Below, one piece after another: positions 1-54,839 of a stretch of 64,000 nucleotides of DNA. The position numbers were made by a program, and so were the translations under genes. The notes beneath the pieces are model-generated. The model worked only from the letters and a program-made list of their open reading frames with translations. It ran no database searches and had not been told where the DNA came from. Source of the DNA: Ignavibacteriales bacterium (lineage in GTDB: Bacteria > Bacteroidota > Ignavibacteria > UBA10030). Every line of letters begins with the position of its first letter. Position 1 is the stretch's first letter. The stretch spans positions 534,737 to 598,736 of the forward strand of contig JAPLFR010000016.1 in the NCBI GenBank assembly GCA_026390575.1. The letters run 5' to 3'.

Positions 1-481
1 CTACTTCATCCGCCCACAGAAGCGCGTCTTTACCCGTTGATTCCGTGCCGGCCTTTGTCCATACTGTCCAGCTTCCATTGTTTTTTTTAACATCAAGAGC
101 AACGACAACCGATTGCGAGCCAACTCGCTTGCTTGCCTCATCAATAAACGATGGGCACGCAAGCGCTGCAGAATTGAGCGAAACTTTATCTGCGCCTGCA
201 TCTAAAGCACGTCCGGCATCGTCCACAGTACTAATGCCGCCGCCCACGGTAAATGGAATTTGAATAGCTTCCGCTACACGTTCGACCATTTGTAAAAAAG
301 TTTTTCGCCCTTCGAGCGTTGCACTAATGTCAAGAAAAACCAATTCATCAGCGCCTTCTTCGGAATATCGTGCAGCTAACTCCACTGGATCGCCAGCATC
401 ACGAAGCTGCAAAAAATTTGTGCCCTTCACGGTTCTACCGTCTTTCACATCGAGACAAGGGATGATACGTTTCGTCAACAT
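1..481 (-). CDS. hisF: Imidazole glycerol phosphate synthase cyclase subunit HisF (N-terminal ~160 aa; gene continues beyond window start)
   Basis: Minus-strand frame from ATG at 479-481 translates [100 protein letters not shown]. This is a canonical HisF N-terminus. It is absent from the ORF track because no stop lies inside the window. The start overlaps the hisA stop. Confidence 0.9.
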
Positions 482-1203
482 ACGGCACCGTTCATCTTTG
501 CAAGTTCATCGATTGGCAGCTTATTCTCATAGATGGCTTTGCCGATAATCACTCCGGCAAGCTCTGCTTTTTTCAATACTTGTACATCTTCCAGTGTCGA
601 GATGCCTCCGGAAGCGATAATGGATAGTTTTGGGAAAGCAGATTTTAGATTTTGATAAAAATCAATATTCACTCCGCCCAGCATTCCATCGCGTGAAATA
701 TCGGTGCAAATGAATATTTTTGCACCACGCCTTATCATGTCCAGCACAAATCCCATTGGCGCACGATGACTGTCTTCTAACCATCCACTGATGGCAACCG
801 TATCGTCTTTCACATCCATGCCGACAACAATCCTATCGGCGCCAAATTGTTTAATCCAATACTCTACTAACTCTGGTGACTTTGCCGCCGCACTGCCGAT
901 CACAACGCGCGACACTCCGATTTCAATCAGTTTCTTTATATCGTCCGTTGTGCGAATTCCGCCTCCGACTTCCACTTGTAATCCCGGCACTGCGATGATA
1001 GATGCGATGGAATCCCAATTGACAATCTTCTTTTCCTTTGCTCCCTGTAAATCCACAATGTGTAAAAACGTGAATCCGGCTTCCGCAAATTGCTTTGCAA
1101 TCTCTGCAGGCGATGCCCCGTAAACAGTTTTCTGATCGTAATTGCCTTGACGCAGGCGGACGCATTTACCGTCAATAATATCGATTGCTGGAATTATGAG
1201 CAT
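475..1203 (-). CDS. hisA: ProFAR isomerase HisA
   Basis: 242 aa with the [20 protein letters not shown]...GGGIRT...ASGGIS (beta/alpha)8 HisA signature. Sits in his operon context. Confidence 0.9.
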
Positions 1204-1790
1204 AATTCAATAAAATTTTTCAGAAGCTGCAACCCGACTTTGCTGGATTTTTCAGGATGGAATTGAACCCCGTAATAATTCTTTTGTTGCATTGCTGATG
1301 TGAATTGTACATCATAGTCCGTCATACCGATGGTTGCCGGAACAATCGGTGCGTAATAGGAATGGACAAAATAGAAATATTCGCCAAATTTAATTCCGGA
1401 GAATAACGGATTTTTACCATCCTGCTGAACCTGGTTCCATCCCATGTGTGGTACTTTGAGTTTGGACTTTTCGCTCTTGAACCGCTCGTTTGTTCCGGAA
1501 ATCATACCGAGGCAATCGGTGGCTCGTTCTGTCGTATGTTCAAATAACAATTGCATTCCCAGACAGATTCCAAGAAATGGAACGGTCACTTCTTTCAGCC
1601 AATCAGTGAGCCCAGCGCGTATAAGTGCATCCATCGCACTTCGTGCTTCGCCGACTCCAGGAAAAATAAGTTTATCGGCTTTATTAAGTTCACCGCAATC
1701 ATGAGAGATAAAATGCGGTACACTGAGCCGATTGAGCGCATTGCTTACCGATCGAATATTGCCAGCACCGTAATTAATAATCCCAATCAC
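1194..1790 (-). CDS. hisH: Imidazole glycerol phosphate synthase glutaminase subunit HisH
   Basis: 198 aa class-I GATase with catalytic Cys motif GICLGMQLL and C-terminal HPEKS. Overlaps hisA and hisB by a few nt. Confidence 0.9.
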   Translation of the reverse strand: MIGIINYGAGNIRSVSNALNRLSVPHFISHDCGELNKADKLIFPGVGEARSAMDALIRAGLTDWLKEVTVPFLGICLGMQLLFEHTTERATDCLGMISGTNERFKSEKSKLKVPHMGWNQVQQDGKNPLFSGIKFGEYFYFVHSYYAPIVPATIGMTDYDVQFTSAMQQKNYYGVQFHPEKSSKVGLQLLKNFIELCS

Positions 1791-2884
1791 AGCATACCTT
1801 TCGTTGAAGGAAGCACATCGGCATTTTGTTCGTTCTGTGTTACCGCCTGCCGCAACGCACGCGCTACCGCTTTGAAGATTGCTTCAATCTTATGATGGTC
1901 GTTTCTGCCGGCAACAGTAATATGGAGATTTGCCCGCAAGCCGTCGGCAAATGCACGGAAGAAATCTTCCACTAATTCTGTTGGAAATTCGCCGACCTTT
2001 TCGCGCTCGAATGGCGCATTAAACGAACAGAATGGCCGCCCGCCCAAATCCAGCGCAACTTGCGCCATCGATTCGTCCATCGGCAGAAGAAATCCGTACC
2101 GCTCGATACCGCGCTTATCGCCAAGCGCTTGCCGGATCGCTTCGCCAAGCGTTAACCCTGTATCTTCGACGCTGTGATGTTCGTCCACTTGAAGATCGCC
2201 TTGTACTTCGATTTTCATATCGATGCCGGAATGTTTCGCTAGTAAAGCAAGCATGTGATCGAAGAAACCGATACCTGAATGTATTTCATAACTGCCTGTA
2301 CCATCCAAACATACTTCCACAGAAATTTTTGTCTCCGCTGTATTTCGCTTGAGGGCTGCCGAGCGATCCGATCGAACGATATAACGGCATGCTTCAATAA
2401 AGCTTCCAGTTTTAAAATCAGCGCTCGTTGATTCATTGGATGTCAAGCGAATAGCTTTGCAGCCGATATTGCGTGCAAGATGGACATCCGTCTCACGATC
2501 TCCAAATACAAATGACCGAAAAAGATCGACTTCATGAGAACGAATAAACTTGTCTACTAAACCTGTTTTGGGTTTCCGACACGCACAATTTTCATTTGCA
2601 CCATGTGGGCAAATGAATACAGCATTGATTTGAATTCCTTCACCATTCAGCAACCGCATTAATTTGTTCTGAACGATTTCGTACTTTTCATTCGGATATG
2701 CTGATGATCCAAGATTGTCTTGATTCGACACAAGCACAAAAATATATCCACGATTCTGCAAAAGTCGCAGCCCTTGAATGACGCCTGGAATTAATTCAAG
2801 CTTCTCCAAGGAATCCACTTGTTCATCTGGCGGTTCCACAATAATAGTGCCGTCACGATCAAGAAAAATAACTTTCATGCACAA
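1787..2884 (-). CDS. hisB: Bifunctional histidinol-phosphatase / imidazoleglycerol-phosphate dehydratase HisB
   Basis: 365 aa. N-terminal HAD-type DxD motif (FLDRDGTII). C-terminal IGPD motifs (HHxxE, HITVAGRNDHHKIEAIFKAVARAL). Confidence 0.85.
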   Translation of the reverse strand: MCMKVIFLDRDGTIIVEPPDEQVDSLEKLELIPGVIQGLRLLQNRGYIFVLVSNQDNLGSSAYPNEKYEIVQNKLMRLLNGEGIQINAVFICPHGANENCACRKPKTGLVDKFIRSHEVDLFRSFVFGDRETDVHLARNIGCKAIRLTSNESTSADFKTGSFIEACRYIVRSDRSAALKRNTAETKISVEVCLDGTGSYEIHSGIGFFDHMLALLAKHSGIDMKIEVQGDLQVDEHHSVEDTGLTLGEAIRQALGDKRGIERYGFLLPMDESMAQVALDLGGRPFCSFNAPFEREKVGEFPTELVEDFFRAFADGLRANLHITVAGRNDHHKIEAIFKAVARALRQAVTQNEQNADVLPSTKGML

Positions 2885-3921
2885 TATTCCTTTATGGCAC
2901 GAATCAATTGTTCGTTCTCATGCCGAGTACCGACGGTAATACGCAAACAATTTTCCAGGAGCGGTTCTGTCGTGCGATTACGAATAATAATTTCTTTTGA
3001 TGCCAAATATTTATAAAGAGCCGTTGCATTTTTGCATCGAACAAGAATGAAGTTTGCGTCAGATGGAAAAACATGTTCTATGCACGGTAGAGCTGTCAGT
3101 TGAGCGGAAAGCCATTCGCGTTCTTCCACAATTAAATCAATCGTTCGGCGCACTTCTTCTCCTTTGCGAAGCGCTTGCAGCGCTGCCCGGCTTGTCAGCG
3201 CGTTTATATTGTAGGGCGCTTTAACCTTCATCATAAAAGATATAACAATCGGATCGGCTATGCAGTACCCGAGACGAATTCCAGCCAATCCCCACGCTTT
3301 TGAAAGTGTGCGCATCACAACTAAATTAGGATGCTTGGACGATTGTTTTCCCATCGATGTTGATCGTGCAAAATCTATATACGCTTCGTCAACAATGACC
3401 ATAGCTCCAAGTTCACACAATGCAAGAATATCTTTTGAATATAATAAATTTGCTGTTGGATTGTTTGGTGAACAACAGAAGATCAGCTTCGTCGTTTCAT
3501 CGATTGTCTTTTTCACTGCATCAAGATCAATTTGGAATTTGTCGGTCAGCAGGCATGGATGAATTTGAACATTTTGAATTGACGAAGCGACACGATACAT
3601 ACCATACGTCGGTTCCAAGAGAAGGACAGAATCACGCTTCGGTTCACAAAACACGCGCACGAGCAGATCAATAACTTCATCCGATCCCACACCAACAAAT
3701 ACATTCTCTACTCCAACGCCATTCATGTCGGCAAGGACAGTTCGCAATTCACACTGATATGGATCAGGATAACGGTTAAGAGATACGTCATCAACTATCA
3801 GTGAGCTTCCAAAAGAATTCTCATTGGCATCAAGAAGAATACCGGAGAGGAAATCCTGACGCGCGCTGTGATACGGTTTCAATGCGCGAATGTTTGCTCG
3901 AATAAGTGATTCTATATTCAT
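2875..3921 (-). CDS. hisC: Histidinol-phosphate aminotransferase
   Basis: 348 aa class-II aminotransferase with PLP-lysine region (RTLSKAWGLAGIRLGY). Position between hisB and hisD. Confidence 0.85.
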   Translation of the reverse strand: MNIESLIRANIRALKPYHSARQDFLSGILLDANENSFGSSLIVDDVSLNRYPDPYQCELRTVLADMNGVGVENVFVGVGSDEVIDLLVRVFCEPKRDSVLLLEPTYGMYRVASSIQNVQIHPCLLTDKFQIDLDAVKKTIDETTKLIFCCSPNNPTANLLYSKDILALCELGAMVIVDEAYIDFARSTSMGKQSSKHPNLVVMRTLSKAWGLAGIRLGYCIADPIVISFMMKVKAPYNINALTSRAALQALRKGEEVRRTIDLIVEEREWLSAQLTALPCIEHVFPSDANFILVRCKNATALYKYLASKEIIIRNRTTEPLLENCLRITVGTRHENEQLIRAIKEYCA

Positions 3922-3933
3922 ATGATTGAGCTA

Positions 3934-5223
3934 TTACTTTAAAAGTCGGGATGTGACAGCGCGGGCATGTGCCTGTAAACCCTCGACAGACGCAAACGCG
4001 GTTAATGTCGGTGCCAAGCTTTCAAGGCCAGATTTCGTAATAGATTGAAACGTAACATTTTTCAGAAAACTATCAAGTGAGACTCCACTTGCCCAGCGGG
4101 CAGTACCGCTGGTCGGCAACGTATGGTTTGTGCCCGACGCATAATCTCCCGCCGTTACTGGAGCAAATTGTCCCACAAACACAGATCCGGCATTCATAAT
4201 CGATGGAACAATTGCTTCAGCATTTTGCATATTGATGATGAGATGCTCCGGCGCATAATCGTTAGAAAATCTCACAGCCGACTCAAATGAATTCGCAATA
4301 ACAATGTAGCCGTGTTCCAATGATGACTCGACAATTTTATTCCGTGGAAATTCTGATGCATTCTGCGGTAAAATTCGCAGTACTTCCTTCGCTAATAATT
4401 CACTTGTTGTTACCAGCACAACCTGAGCATCAGCATCGTGTTCTGCCTGGGAGAGCAAATCATACGCTACAACTTCCGGATTCGCTGTTTCATCAGCAAG
4501 AATAAGAACTTCAGATGGTCCAGCAAGTAAATCAATTGCTGCACCCTCAGGATCGGTCGAAACGAATTGTTTCGCAGCGGTCACGTAGCGATTGCCCGGA
4601 CCGAATATTTTATGAACCTTCGGAATGGTTTCTGTTCCGTATGCCATCGCTGCAATTGCCTGTGCACCGCCAACTTTGTACACTTCAGTAATTCCAATCA
4701 TTGCTGCGGCTGCAAGCACGAGCGGATCGACAGTGCCATTCGTCTTCGGCGGTGAACATAACACGATGCGCGAACATCCAGCAAGCACTGCCGGTATTCC
4801 AAGCATCAATACTGTTGACGGCAACGGTGCCGAACCAGCAGGCACGTATAAACCAACCCGTTCAAGAGGGCGAGCTTCACGCCAGCATACAACACCTTCC
4901 ATTGTTGTGATACGCTGTGTTTTATTCAACTGAGATTCATGGAACGTACAGATATTTTTTGATGCAACATGTAATGCGTCTCTAAATTCAGGTGAGAGCT
5001 GTTTTTTTGCCGCTTCAAATTCTTCTGACGATACACGAATTGTTTGCACTTCCGCTTTATCAAACTTTCTGCTATACTCATGCACCGCGTCGTCGCCACG
5101 CCGTTTGATCGTGAGGCACACTTCCTGAATGATATTCCCAGAATCGCTTTGTAGAGTGCTCGGACGCTGAAGAAGAGAAATGCGTTCTTCTCTCGTCAAT
5201 GTATTTTCAGAATAAATCTTCAT
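3934..5223 (-). CDS. hisD: Histidinol dehydrogenase
   Basis: 429 aa with characteristic HisD motifs (GPGNRYVTAAK, QAEHD, DYxAGxNHxLPT). Confidence 0.9.
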   Translation of the reverse strand: MKIYSENTLTREERISLLQRPSTLQSDSGNIIQEVCLTIKRRGDDAVHEYSRKFDKAEVQTIRVSSEEFEAAKKQLSPEFRDALHVASKNICTFHESQLNKTQRITTMEGVVCWREARPLERVGLYVPAGSAPLPSTVLMLGIPAVLAGCSRIVLCSPPKTNGTVDPLVLAAAAMIGITEVYKVGGAQAIAAMAYGTETIPKVHKIFGPGNRYVTAAKQFVSTDPEGAAIDLLAGPSEVLILADETANPEVVAYDLLSQAEHDADAQVVLVTTSELLAKEVLRILPQNASEFPRNKIVESSLEHGYIVIANSFESAVRFSNDYAPEHLIINMQNAEAIVPSIMNAGSVFVGQFAPVTAGDYASGTNHTLPTSGTARWASGVSLDSFLKNVTFQSITKSGLESLAPTLTAFASVEGLQAHARAVTSRLLK

Positions 5224-6095
5224 CGGATAATCGTTTCAATAGGCACCACAATAATATCACTGGCGCCTGCCTTTTTAAGTTTTTCCATCACATCCCAAAA
5301 TACATCTTCTGCCACGACAGAGTGAATTGCTACCATGCCCGTTTCTGCAAGCGGCACCACCGTCGGACTTTTCAAACTCGGAATAACACGCTTCAACCTC
5401 GCGACAGAATCAGCCGGTGCATTCATCATAAGATAACGCTTGCCGCCAGCTTCCTGCGAACCATGAACACGAATCATGAGTCGATCGATAACTGCGCGTT
5501 TTTTCTTATCGCGCATCGATGCCGGATTTGCTACCAGCACTGCCTGTGATTCTAATACGGTGCAGAATGTGCGCAAACCGTACATCTTTGCAGTGGTGCC
5601 GGTTGAGACTATATCACAAATGACATCGGCAACATTAAGGCTCGGAGCCAATTCCACCGAACCGCTCAATTCGACAATTTCCGCACGTACCTTATTGTCT
5701 TTTAAAAATGATTTGAGAATTGTAGGATACGTTGTGCCGATACGCTGACCATTCAAGTCCGAGATTTTACGAACAGCAGATCTCTGCGGCACACTGATCA
5801 TGAGTTTACATCCGCCGAATCCCAGCGGTGCAAGGAGATGGACATGGGCGTTTCGCTCCTGCAGTACATTTTCTCCGATGATTCCAAGATCCGCAACACC
5901 ATCCTGCACATATTCAGGAATATCATCATCCCGAATCGCCAGCACATCCAGGTCAAAGTTGTTGCAGGGTGAGTAGAGACTTTGTTTTTGAAATTCAAAA
6001 CTTAATCCGCATGCACGGAGCAACGAAACCGAATCTTCGGTAAGACGTCCGTTCCGCTGGATTGCTATTTTCATTCTTCCATTTGTCGCAAGCAT
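5220..6095 (-). CDS. hisG: ATP phosphoribosyltransferase (long form with C-terminal regulatory domain)
   Basis: 291 aa. MKIAIQRNGRL...DLGIIGENVL...TGTTAKMYGL motifs. It is the first gene of the minus-strand his operon. Confidence 0.9.
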   Translation of the reverse strand: MLATNGRMKIAIQRNGRLTEDSVSLLRACGLSFEFQKQSLYSPCNNFDLDVLAIRDDDIPEYVQDGVADLGIIGENVLQERNAHVHLLAPLGFGGCKLMISVPQRSAVRKISDLNGQRIGTTYPTILKSFLKDNKVRAEIVELSGSVELAPSLNVADVICDIVSTGTTAKMYGLRTFCTVLESQAVLVANPASMRDKKKRAVIDRLMIRVHGSQEAGGKRYLMMNAPADSVARLKRVIPSLKSPTVVPLAETGMVAIHSVVAEDVFWDVMEKLKKAGASDIIVVPIETIIR

Positions 6096-6137
6096 ACTTT
6101 ATCCTGATAAAGTGTTTAGTCCAAAAAAAATGTATTG

Positions 6138-6422
6138 TTATTTTGTCGTTCGTTTTAACATCATCGAATATCCGCCCTTACCCTTTTTCAGCCATCTGCC
6201 TACGCGGGCGATTGTGCGTGTGCTCAACCCGGTTTCAGCTTCGATTTGCGTGTACGGGATGCCGTCTGCCAGCATCTGCGCTGCTTTCCAGCGTTCTACG
6301 AATTCTTTAATTTCGTATTCTGTGAGCAGATCGCGAAAGAACCGCCGGCATTCATCCACTGAATTGAGCTGGAGAATAGCGTTATACAGATCGTCAACTT
6401 CTTTTATACTTGGTTTTTTCAT
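6138..6422 (-). CDS. TrpR-like DNA-binding protein, YerC/YecD family (candidate histidine-operon regulator)
   Basis: 94 aa. Strong similarity pattern to B. subtilis YerC (FFRDLLTEYEI...MLADGIPYTQIEAETGLSTRTIARVGRWL, an HTH of the TrpR superfamily). Immediately upstream of and co-directional with hisG. Confidence 0.7.
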   Translation of the reverse strand: MKKPSIKEVDDLYNAILQLNSVDECRRFFRDLLTEYEIKEFVERWKAAQMLADGIPYTQIEAETGLSTRTIARVGRWLKKGKGGYSMMLKRTTK

Positions 6423-6459
6423 ACTTTACTCTGATATTTTTTCATACTTTACTCTGATA
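6414..6459. repeat. Perfect 23-bp tandem duplication (TTTTTTCATACTTTACTCTGATA x2) spanning the start codon of the TrpR-like gene
   Basis: Positions 6414-6436 and 6437-6459 are identical. On the minus strand each copy carries an ATG. The distal copy encodes uORF MKKYQSKV. Its TGA overlaps the regulator ATG (gtATGAaa). Confidence 0.85.
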
Positions 6460-6560
6460 AAAGATTAGAGAATTTTTTCCAGAGTGTCAAGTATTTTTTT
6501 TCTCTTGTCAAAGAAAATCATTTTCTCTACTTTGCAACTGCATAAAATAGCGAAATTTAT

Positions 6561-7508
6561 ATGATTTCAGTTACTGATATTGAACTTGCGTATACCATCG
6601 TCAAACCGGTGGTTCATAAAACTCCGCTCCTTACCTCTCGCAGGATGAACGAGATATGCGGCAACGAAATCTTTTTGAAAGCAGAGAATCTTCAACGGGT
6701 TGGTGCATTTAAAATTCGCGGCGCATACAATAAAATTGCTTCGCTTACGCAGGACGAGAAACACAGGGGTATTGTAGCACATTCCTCCGGTAATCATGCA
6801 CAGGGGGTAGCACTTGCCGCCAAGCTGTTACATGTAAAAGCTGTTGTTGTTATGCCGAAGAATTCTCCTCGCATTAAAGTCGATGCGACTCAATCATACG
6901 GTGCCGAGGTTGTTTTTTGCGAAGATTCTTCTGATGACAGGGAACGAGTTGCAAAAAAATTGCAGACGCAATTTGGCTATGCAATGGTACCTCCATTCGA
7001 TGATGATAAAATTATCGCTGGACAAGGAACGTTGATGCTGGAAGTTGCACAGGAACGTACTTCGATCGACTATCTTTTTGTTCCTGTTGGCGGCGGCGGT
7101 CTTATCAGTGGATGTGCCGTTGCCGCAAAGCATTTTTTTCCACATATCAAGGTCATCGGCGTGGAGACTGAACCGGCGAACGACTGCCAGCAGTCATTTC
7201 GAAAAAAAGAAATCGTACGCATTGCTCCGCCAGATACCATTGCCGACGGTATGCGAACGCAGTCTGTTGGCAAACGCAACTTTGAAATTATTATGAAGTA
7301 TGTCGATGACGTTATCACTGTGACCGATACACAGGTGATCGAGATGATGCGCTACTGCATGCAGCGTATGAAAATTATTGTCGAACCGACCGGCGCAGTT
7401 GCTCCGGCGGCTGTCTTCCATAATGTTCTCAAGTTATCCGGTAAGAAAATCTGTGCCATCATCAGCGGCGGGAATGTGGAACCATCTCTCCTCAAACAAT
7501 GGTTATAG
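6561..7508 (+). CDS. Threonine/serine dehydratase (PLP-dependent, short catabolic form without ACT domain)
   Basis: 315 aa. PLP-lysine motif AFKIRGAYNK, SSGNHAQGVALAAK, and glycine-rich GGGGLISG loop. These are typical of the threonine ammonia-lyase/serine racemase family. Confidence 0.8.
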   Translation: MISVTDIELAYTIVKPVVHKTPLLTSRRMNEICGNEIFLKAENLQRVGAFKIRGAYNKIASLTQDEKHRGIVAHSSGNHAQGVALAAKLLHVKAVVVMPKNSPRIKVDATQSYGAEVVFCEDSSDDRERVAKKLQTQFGYAMVPPFDDDKIIAGQGTLMLEVAQERTSIDYLFVPVGGGGLISGCAVAAKHFFPHIKVIGVETEPANDCQQSFRKKEIVRIAPPDTIADGMRTQSVGKRNFEIIMKYVDDVITVTDTQVIEMMRYCMQRMKIIVEPTGAVAPAAVFHNVLKLSGKKICAIISGGNVEPSLLKQWL

Positions 7509-29050: not shown

Positions 29051-29818
29051 ATGAGAGAAGAACATTACGACATTTCCGGTATAAACTTTAACTTCTCAAT
29101 AATGAGGATTAATACCCTAAGCGTTCTTTGGATTTGTGCGTTAGTTGTGGCAATCAGAATGAATTATGAAGCGACATTCCTGACCTGGGAGCAGGGGCCA
29201 CAAATGATAGGATTTAGTTTTGTTCATTCCTATGGGGCATTATTGATATTAGCGTCGCTCATTCTAATCATAATAACTTTTATCCAGATGGTTAGAATAA
29301 TAATCAAGTTATTCAAGAAATCGAAGATTGAACGTCAATACTTTATTTGTTTCATAATTTCGATCTTCTTTATTTGCTTAAACTTTATTCCTTATAGTGT
29401 TGCACAGACATTTATGATTCATTCCCAAGGATTACCAAAAGATACTCTACGATTCTTTACAAACGCAGCACATGATGGCGATCTAGGAATAATGAAATTG
29501 ATGATAAAGAAAAGGTATCAGCCAGACAGCACCGTCTTTTCGACTTGTTTGTTTAATGCTTGTTTCAGTGGACATAGAGATGTTATAGAGTATTCCTTGG
29601 AACATGGTGCCAACATCAATTATCAAACCGATGATTTTAAGACGACACCATTAATGATTGCTGCCGAGAAAGACGAATCAGAAACAATTGAATTTTTATT
29701 GGCGCATGGGGCTAATCCTAGGTTAAGAGACGAATTTGAAGAAGAAAGAACAGCGTTGGATTGGGCTGTATATTATAAAAATAAAAAAAGTATTTCAATA
29801 TTGAGCAAGTATAAATAG
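29051..29818 (+). CDS. Membrane-anchored ankyrin-repeat protein
   Basis: 255 aa. N-terminal TM segments. C-terminal ANK repeats (TPLMIAAEKDESETIEFLLAHGANP...). Very AT-rich codon usage. Confidence 0.65.
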   Translation: MREEHYDISGINFNFSIMRINTLSVLWICALVVAIRMNYEATFLTWEQGPQMIGFSFVHSYGALLILASLILIIITFIQMVRIIIKLFKKSKIERQYFICFIISIFFICLNFIPYSVAQTFMIHSQGLPKDTLRFFTNAAHDGDLGIMKLMIKKRYQPDSTVFSTCLFNACFSGHRDVIEYSLEHGANINYQTDDFKTTPLMIAAEKDESETIEFLLAHGANPRLRDEFEEERTALDWAVYYKNKKSISILSKYK

Positions 29819-38402: not shown

Positions 38403-38489
38403 TTTGTGCTATTTTACTCTAACAAAAAACGAGATCGCACCAGGATAAACCACTACCTTGCTCCTCATCTCATCCAGAGGAAAAAATCT

Positions 38490-54709: not shown

Positions 54710-54776
54710 TAGGGGAATCAAAAGGATAACATCTAACGTGAATTGAATTGATGTTACAAAAACTTTCCGTTATTAG

Positions 54777-54839
54777 CTGATAACTGATTGCTGATTACTG
54801 ATTACTTACAACTGATTACTGACTACTGACGACTGATTC
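54777..54839. repeat. Degenerate heptanucleotide tandem array (CTGATTA)x9
   Basis: ctgataa ctgattg ctgatta ctgatta cttacaa ctgatta ctgacta ctgacga ctgattc. It lies between the convergent PAP2 and ychF genes. The aacatc...gatgtt hairpin at 54730-54765 precedes it. Confidence 0.7.

Follow-up and report, generated by a model that had tools for sequence, protein, structure and literature searches.

The question raised by this locus is why a perfect tandem duplication should sit on the start codon of a small regulator gene, and whether the regulation of that gene is changed by it. The gene was described in the initial annotation as encoding a TrpR-like regulator, and one outcome of the duplication is an 8-codon upstream open reading frame (uORF). 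The reading that we favor for the 64-kb stretch of Ignavibacteriales DNA analyzed here (the window), at a probability of about 0.7, is that there are 2 operators of the HisR type, one at the promoter of hisR itself and one on the start of hisG, and that a 23-bp segment has been duplicated in one strain with side effects that are incidental.

HisR, of which YerC is the founding member, belongs to the TrpR family and represses genes for the biosynthesis and transport of histidine, which also serves as its co-repressor (PMC9413887). Its definition came from comparative genomics (Ashniev et al. 2022, PMC9413887), with in vitro validation of the Ruminococcus gnavus protein, which binds a 20-bp site only with histidine present. 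The same study gives cacTTTAnnnnnnTAAAgtg as the common operator consensus of Firmicutes, Actinobacteria, and Synergistetes, and reports the layout having hisR first in the his operon with the site just upstream from Proteobacteria, Elusimicrobium, and Pyramidobacter (PMC9413887). Ignavibacteriota, Bacteroidetes, Chlorobi, and Patescibacteria are not mentioned in it, and we found no later literature on HisR outside Firmicutes besides that paper. The phylum of the present host, Ignavibacteriota, is placed in Bacteroidota in some record titles.

The Tandem Duplication

TRF reports one array at the hisR start with a period of 23, 2.0 copies, 100% matches, no indels, and the unit TTTTTTCATACTTTACTCTGATA; it is the sole repeat of such length and perfection in the window. 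The coordinates of this and the other features are collected in Table 1. By direct reading, the order on the minus strand is TTGACA-N17-TAATCT-tt-[TATCAGAGTAAAGTATGAAAAAA][TATCAGAGTAAAGTATGAAAAAA]-CCAAGT..., with one unit in each outer bracket. By our own arithmetic, chance would produce a perfect tandem copy of 23 bp within 64 kb with a probability of order 1 × 10−9, so the repeat is a true duplication event. Each unit, read on the minus strand, contains one ATG preceded by the same 14 nt (TATCAGAGTAAAGT), and its content amounts to the 3' 13 bp of a 20-bp HisR operator plus the hisR ATG and 2 Lys codons. The perfect duplication, the 2 minus-strand ATGs in the same context, the peptide MKKYQSKV, and the ATGA overlap with the regulator gene had all been correctly described in the initial annotation. 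Elsewhere in the window, TRF finds an imperfect tandem array at 54772–54838 having a 7-bp unit, ATTACTG, in 9.4 copies (also reported with a 21-bp period × 3.1).

Table 1. Features of the hisR locus and his operon, with positions in the window
Feature	Position	Strand	Basis
Perfect tandem duplication, 2 × 23 bp; minus-strand unit TATCAGAGTAAAGTATGAAAAAA	6414..6459	-	TRF and direct sequence
Distal (promoter-proximal) repeat unit	6437-6459	-	
Proximal (hisR-adjoining) repeat unit	6414-6436	-	
Putative hisR/his operon promoter: TTGACA 6490-6485, 17-nt spacer, TAATCT 6467-6462	6462..6490	-	Sequence and conservation
O(hisR), full putative HisR operator: TCTTTTATCAGAGTAAAGTA, core TTTA-N6-TAAA	6445..6464	-	PWM, conservation, published consensus
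Degenerate operator copy made by the duplication: AAAAATATCAGAGTAAAGTA	6422..6441	-	PWM, 5.5 bits
O(hisG), putative HisR operator: CACTTTATCAGGATAAAGTA	6095..6114	-	PWM, pattern match, conservation
uORF from the duplication: ATG AAA AAA TAT CAG AGT AAA GTA TGA = MKKYQSKV*	6419..6445	-	Translation
hisR, 94-aa YerC/YecD-family TrpR-related repressor	6138..6422	-	PF01371, TIGR02531
his genes directly after hisR, whole block	475..6095	-	
hisG	5220-6095	-	Pfam and NCBIfam equivalog matches
hisD	3934-5223	-	Pfam and NCBIfam equivalog matches
hisC	2875-3921	-	Pfam and NCBIfam equivalog matches
hisB (bifunctional)	1787-2884	-	Pfam and NCBIfam equivalog matches
hisH	1194-1790	-	Pfam and NCBIfam equivalog matches
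hisA	475-1203	-	Pfam and NCBIfam equivalog matches

The two-copy sequence recurs identically in 2 Logan contigs from other sequencing runs, ERR15302175 and SRR25046533 (loci L014 and L015). These contigs match the window with 100% identity, over 3285 and 1895 bp, so what they confirm is the allele in the same strain and not in independent lineages. There are 22 contigs on record with the exact HisR protein; 2 of them were inspected, and both are two-copy. The duplication is real and was reproduced in 3 assemblies, all of one strain, the only strain from which it is known.

As relatives we use 21 Ignavibacteriota loci, about 71% to 91.5% identical to the window in DNA sequence, made up of 11 species-representative genomes, 5 metagenome contigs found by the promoter-operator pattern, and 5 contigs traced via HisG homologs; they are labeled L001–L011, L016–L020, and L021–L025. 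Every one of the 21 has a single copy of the 23-bp unit, and the sequence of the nearer ones is that of the window minus exactly one unit. To date the duplication, HisG homologs at 96% to 98% amino acid identity were traced to their contigs. All of these are single-copy, including the nearest non-identical relative, L023, which at 91.5% DNA identity was the best obtained, and the tracing found none between 91.5% and 100%. Among the loci examined, 2 copies are present only in contigs that are 100% identical to the window, that is, in the same strain.

These comparisons bear on the age of the duplication. The initial annotation had proposed comparing one versus two copies in related genomes, and the answer is that the duplication is conserved in none of the 21. 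Of the origins it had listed, a recent slippage event gives the best fit, given that all the relatives are one-copy; as to the slippage mechanism itself, no flanking microhomology that could explain it is found at the array, where the period is broken by the flanking base on either side to leave exactly 2.0 copies. We do not accept the opinion that such a duplication can hardly be neutral and long-lived, since nothing points to a long life: 46 bp is too short to show age, and perfect identity over that length limits the age of the duplication weakly. What we have is a recent, lineage-specific micro-duplication within a known kind of regulatory site.

The HisR Protein and the his Operon

The 94-aa protein matches PF01371 (Trp_repressor, Pfam) with 78.2 bits (cut-off 27) and TIGR02531 (NCBIfam "YerC/YecD family TrpR-related protein") with 85.2 bits (cut-off 42.2). 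These sequence matches place the TrpR-like regulator in the YerC/YecD family, the same family as that of HisR, the histidine repressor. Among solved structures, the protein is closest to PDB IDs: 3KOR, 3FRW, and 3G1C, scoring from E = 1 × 10−13 to 1 × 10−16, with 3G1C at E = 1.2 × 10−13; the last of these has been treated as a HisR structure (PMC9413887). In the helix-turn-helix (HTH) of HisR, the conserved residues are a helix 1 Tyr and, within the recognition helix, T-A-T-I-S-R (PMC9413887). In our protein the helix 1 Tyr is present (IPYTQI), and the recognition helix, at residues about 61 to 68, keeps Thr, Thr, Ile, and Arg while reading STRTIARV where 3KOR and 3FRW have STATISRV, the changes being Ala to Arg and Ser to Ala. 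Despite these 2 changed residues, the operator consensus agrees with that of Firmicutes.

The operon order is hisR-hisG-hisD-hisC-hisB-hisH-hisA, with hisR first and all genes on one strand. The adjacency of hisR and hisG is found in all 21 Ignavibacteriota relatives, and hisD comes next wherever the contig reaches that far. On the other side, a divergent threonine/serine dehydratase-like gene (6561–7508, plus strand) shares the intergenic region with hisR.

Operators and Putative Promoter

The segment that was duplicated crosses the edge of a motif that has a second full occurrence at the start of hisG. To score the motif, a PWM was built solely from the sites of the relatives and then run over the 64-kb window, where it ranks O(hisG) first with 28.4 bits and O(hisR), the distal hisR site, second with 21.3 bits. 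Next after these 2 operators comes the best unrelated (non-his) site, at 38410–38429 with 9.7 bits, and no further convincing HisR sites are found in the 64 kb. The proximal repeat copy is at rank 7. Both operators match the published consensus, the hisG site reading CACTTTAtcaggaTAAAGTa and the hisR site tctTTTAtcagagTAAAgta.

O(hisR) reaches from within the 3' end of the −10 hexamer to the A of the upstream ATG (ATG#1), its last 13 bp lying within the distal unit. O(hisG) includes a perfect 8-2-8 palindrome, ACTTTATC-AG-GATAAAGT, and is positioned 42 bp past the hisR stop, where it overlaps both the hisG start codon, at its A, and a Shine-Dalgarno-like AGGA. No other site in the window fits ACTTTA-N6-TAAAGT without a mismatch, and the 2-mismatch matches to that pattern at 29367 and 37376 are within chance (4 found, 2.9 expected). 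The degenerate copy made by the duplication has the right half-site TAAAGTA intact and the left half-site replaced by the A-run of the preceding unit, and it fails the same pattern at 2 mismatches. A 17-mer core picked out in the initial annotation has, at up to 3 mismatches, 3 matches in the window against 0.05 expected, with the third at 6093–6109 on the hisG start codon. This third and better copy of the motif had been overlooked there, as had the his operon downstream.

Both operators are kept in all 21 relatives, with invariant TTTA/TAAA arms and a variable central N6 and flanking intergenic DNA, and in the more distant relatives the intergenic DNA around the boxes is unalignable. In L011 the hisR ATG is 11 nt further from the box and the box is still beside the promoter. 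That the box stays with the promoter and not with the ATG argues for an operator acting at the DNA level over a translation signal. Within the window, TAAAGTATG is confined to the 3 motif places and is thus no generic translation-start context. Upstream of the 43 long ORFs, too, no such motif is present except at hisG itself.

Just upstream of the hisR box, CTTGACAC and TAAyCT are kept 17 nt apart even where the spacer and the upstream DNA of the relatives can otherwise not be aligned, and it is for this phylogenetic conservation that we retain TTGACA and TAATCT as putative −35 and −10 elements. A sigma-70 consensus scan makes no call for TTGACA-17-TAATCT, for the −10 threshold is missed by TAATCT, which is a weak −10 having 3 of the 6 positions of TATAAT. 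A second TTGACA is located at 6509–6504 on the minus strand, 19 bp upstream of the conserved −35, in most of the closer relatives (16 of the 21 loci); it is absent from L001 and from the more distant L006–L011. Between the hisR stop and the hisG operator there is a run of 7 to 9 T (6125–6132 in the window, minus strand) that is kept in every relative while the surrounding bases vary. No hairpin comes before this run, so there is no obvious terminator, and it could be a UP-like or promoter element for hisG.

The uORF and the Leader RNA

ATG#1 of the uORF is at 6445–6443, and its TGA at 6421–6419 overlaps the hisR ATG at 6422–6420 in the sequence ATGA. The peptide contains no His codons. At the orthologous position the uORF is absent from all 21 relatives, with their 71% to 91.5% DNA identity, and it occurs only in contigs 100% identical to the window. 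The leader folds with a minimum free energy (MFE) of −1.9 kcal/mol (z = +1.3). Neither form of the leader, one-copy or two-copy, is more stably folded than shuffled sequences, and the same applies to the hisG junction (z from +1.1 to +1.45). A 7-bp AU hairpin is possible from the hisG palindrome, though weak and not significant. No terminator-like site was found in the leader, and an Rfam scan of 5900–6700 identified no family, its sole match being a spurious one to mir-59 with 19.5 bits against a gathering score of 80. The uORF looks like a by-product of the duplication and is no member of any conserved leader family. Known regulatory leader peptides, in contrast, are conserved and have sensing codons or stalling motifs, whereas this uORF is known from one strain, has neither, and arises mechanically.

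Proposed Regulation and the Effect of the Duplication

By analogy with the Firmicute homolog, the HisR of R. gnavus, from which the co-repressor and the mode of repression are carried over, HisR with bound histidine would occupy O(hisR) and block either transcription initiation or promoter escape, giving autoregulation together with repression of the operon. Since O(hisR) spans the region from the −10 element to the start codon, occupancy would repress initiation. HisR on O(hisG) may add further control of hisG and the later genes, acting either as a roadblock or at a putative internal promoter.

The duplication took a 23-bp segment across the boundary between operator and start codon and repeated it in tandem, which recreates both of the original junctions. 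At the distal copy the promoter still precedes a complete operator, and at the proximal copy the hisR coding sequence keeps its native 14-nt initiation context. The side effects are a leader that is 23 nt longer, an orphan half-operator, and an out-of-frame ATG opening the 8-codon ORF, whose frame runs to the TGA inside the next ATGAAA. Ribosomes that start at ATG#1 would stop on the hisR ATG, where reinitiation could follow. The ATGA overlap thus probably preserves HisR synthesis, which would explain why the allele is tolerated. The duplication probably survives because the promoter-operator and start-site junctions stay intact, and we infer that the two-copy allele is near-neutral, tolerated rather than designed. 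Its presence as the consensus in 3 assemblies of the strain fits drift or hitch-hiking and equally fits selection.

Relation to Known Systems

Shared with the HisR (YerC) regulon are the protein families PF01371 and TIGR02531 (YerC/YecD); the 20-bp palindromic operator, with TTTA-N6-TAAA as its core and cac/gtg as its flanks; the set of targets, namely hisR itself and the his operon; and the layout with hisR first. The window differs in having a second operator at the hisR-hisG junction over the hisG start, in the partial duplication of one operator in its strain, and in the 2 recognition-helix residues that are changed against the PDB homologs. It is unusual for an operator to lie within an operon where 2 genes join. 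Judged by sequence, the protein family, operator, and his gene context of the HisR system are all found in the window, and histidine dependence would be expected by analogy with R. gnavus.

With Escherichia coli TrpR, the predicted HisR has in common that it is a small all-helical repressor dependent on an amino acid co-repressor, that it represses its own gene, and that its operators cover the promoter or start region. The TrpR operator, TGTAcTnGTnnACnAgTACA, and the TrpR effector differ from those of HisR, and the extra half-site in the window is a strain-specific accident and not a conserved design. The uORF has the same geometry as ATGA-coupled ORFs and short bacterial uORFs, in which the stop of the short ORF overlaps the downstream start so as to permit termination-reinitiation.

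Homologs of HisR with 48% to 49% amino acid identity occur in Patescibacteria, where they are preceded by abutting pairs of CTTTA-N6-TAAAG boxes at 18-bp spacing (L013, 3882–3915; L012, 1026–1096). In L013 a second box pair is located at 5935–5968, just upstream of a PNP_UDP_1 nucleoside phosphorylase gene (6012–6791). Between the regulator and that gene are encoded a HAD hydrolase and a phosphoribosyltransferase-like ORF, the latter scoring 20.9 bits, which is below the Pfam cut-off of 26.3 bits. This arrangement suggests that in Patescibacteria a HisR/YerC-like regulator with the same box controls nucleoside salvage and not histidine genes.

Alternative Explanations

The duplication might have been selected for what it does to translation, with the uORF capturing ribosomes at the 5' end and delivering them to the hisR ATG by termination-reinitiation at ATGA, thereby resetting the HisR level and the set-point of the operon. 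The uORF does have a native initiation context and the ATGA overlap with hisR, and the allele is the assembled consensus in 3 runs of the strain. With a ribosome on ATG#1, the initiation region of the hisR start, ATG#2, would be occupied, so that the 2 starts would have to interact. Furthermore, if transcription starts about 7 nt after TAATCT, the ancestral leader was probably about 10 nt, and lengthening it could alter translation efficiency. Against this, all the features follow automatically from duplicating a segment that contains ATGAAA, with no design needed; the uORF is missing from every one of the relatives, its peptide has no histidine-sensing content, and its leader has no structure. 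The rules of initiation here are also uncertain, strict Shine-Dalgarno cores being found ahead of 10 of the 43 long ORFs in the window. We regard this route to adaptation as unlikely.

The other way in which the duplication could matter is through the half-operator, which would recruit a further HisR dimer beside the full site and so tighten autorepression or add a roadblock before hisR. Tandem binding to half-sites is established for E. coli TrpR, and TrpR operators with differing numbers of adjacent half-sites are known. The proximal copy keeps the right half-site and the center (TCAGAG-TAAAGTA) at 23 bp, or about 2.2 helical turns, from the full site, and the abutting pairs of full boxes upstream of the homologs in L012 and L013 give some precedent for adjacent sites. 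Those natural pairs, however, consist of full sites spaced by 18 bp, not 23 bp, none of the 21 relatives has a second site upstream of hisR, and the proximal copy scores lower than the best unrelated site in the window. The suggestion of duplicated operator half-sites for autoregulation is in this sense half right: the repeat unit does carry HisR-type operator sequence, but only 13 of the 20 positions, and what results in the proximal copy is a half-site with 5.5 bits against the 21.3 and 28.4 bits of the full operators. That it functions as an added HisR site seems to us quite improbable.

Whether through a coupled uORF, an extra HisR half-site between the operator and hisR, or both, a selected regulatory innovation that resets the threshold of his repression is an outcome on which we would not wager. 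If it were true, HisR synthesis would be uncoupled from the ancestral, nearly leaderless start, and the locus would be a natural case of regulatory tuning by tandem duplication of a module made of operator and start site.

That the true genome is one-copy and the second copy an assembly or sequencing artefact is very improbable. A systematic error could in principle recur, given that the window and both confirming contigs are 100% identical, but the same sequence is obtained in 3 assemblies from different runs, and gene callers put the same 94-aa ORF downstream of the array in the 2 Logan contigs. With a period of 23 and 2 copies, no 31-mer recurs in the array, so a de Bruijn assembler should have met no ambiguity in the graph by which to expand it.

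The leader-peptide suggestion, taken as a his-type transcription attenuator, is effectively refuted: the uORF does stand before a his operon, and in Proteobacteria the classical way to control such operons is by leader-peptide attenuation (PMC9413887), but his attenuator leaders have consecutive His codons and alternative terminator/antiterminator hairpins, whereas MKKYQSKV has no His codon, the leader is without such a fold (its MFE and z are given above), a terminator-like site, or an Rfam family, and the uORF is missing from all relatives.

Implications

Returning to the reading with 2 HisR-type operators and an incidental duplication, the perfect repeat at the start codon is best explained by the HisR operator that underlies it. 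As the sequences of the relatives indicate, it is the HisR operator and not the duplication that is the conserved feature of the locus. On present evidence, the duplication is an ordinary strain-level polymorphism and not a new mechanism. The one-copy and two-copy alleles differ only by the uORF and the half-operator, and hence they constitute a natural experiment by which the contribution of each could be measured. At the level of the family, the histidine regulon of HisR is extended by sequence evidence to Ignavibacteriota, a phylum outside the founding comparative study, in a layout where one operator is at the promoter and a second is on the hisG start.
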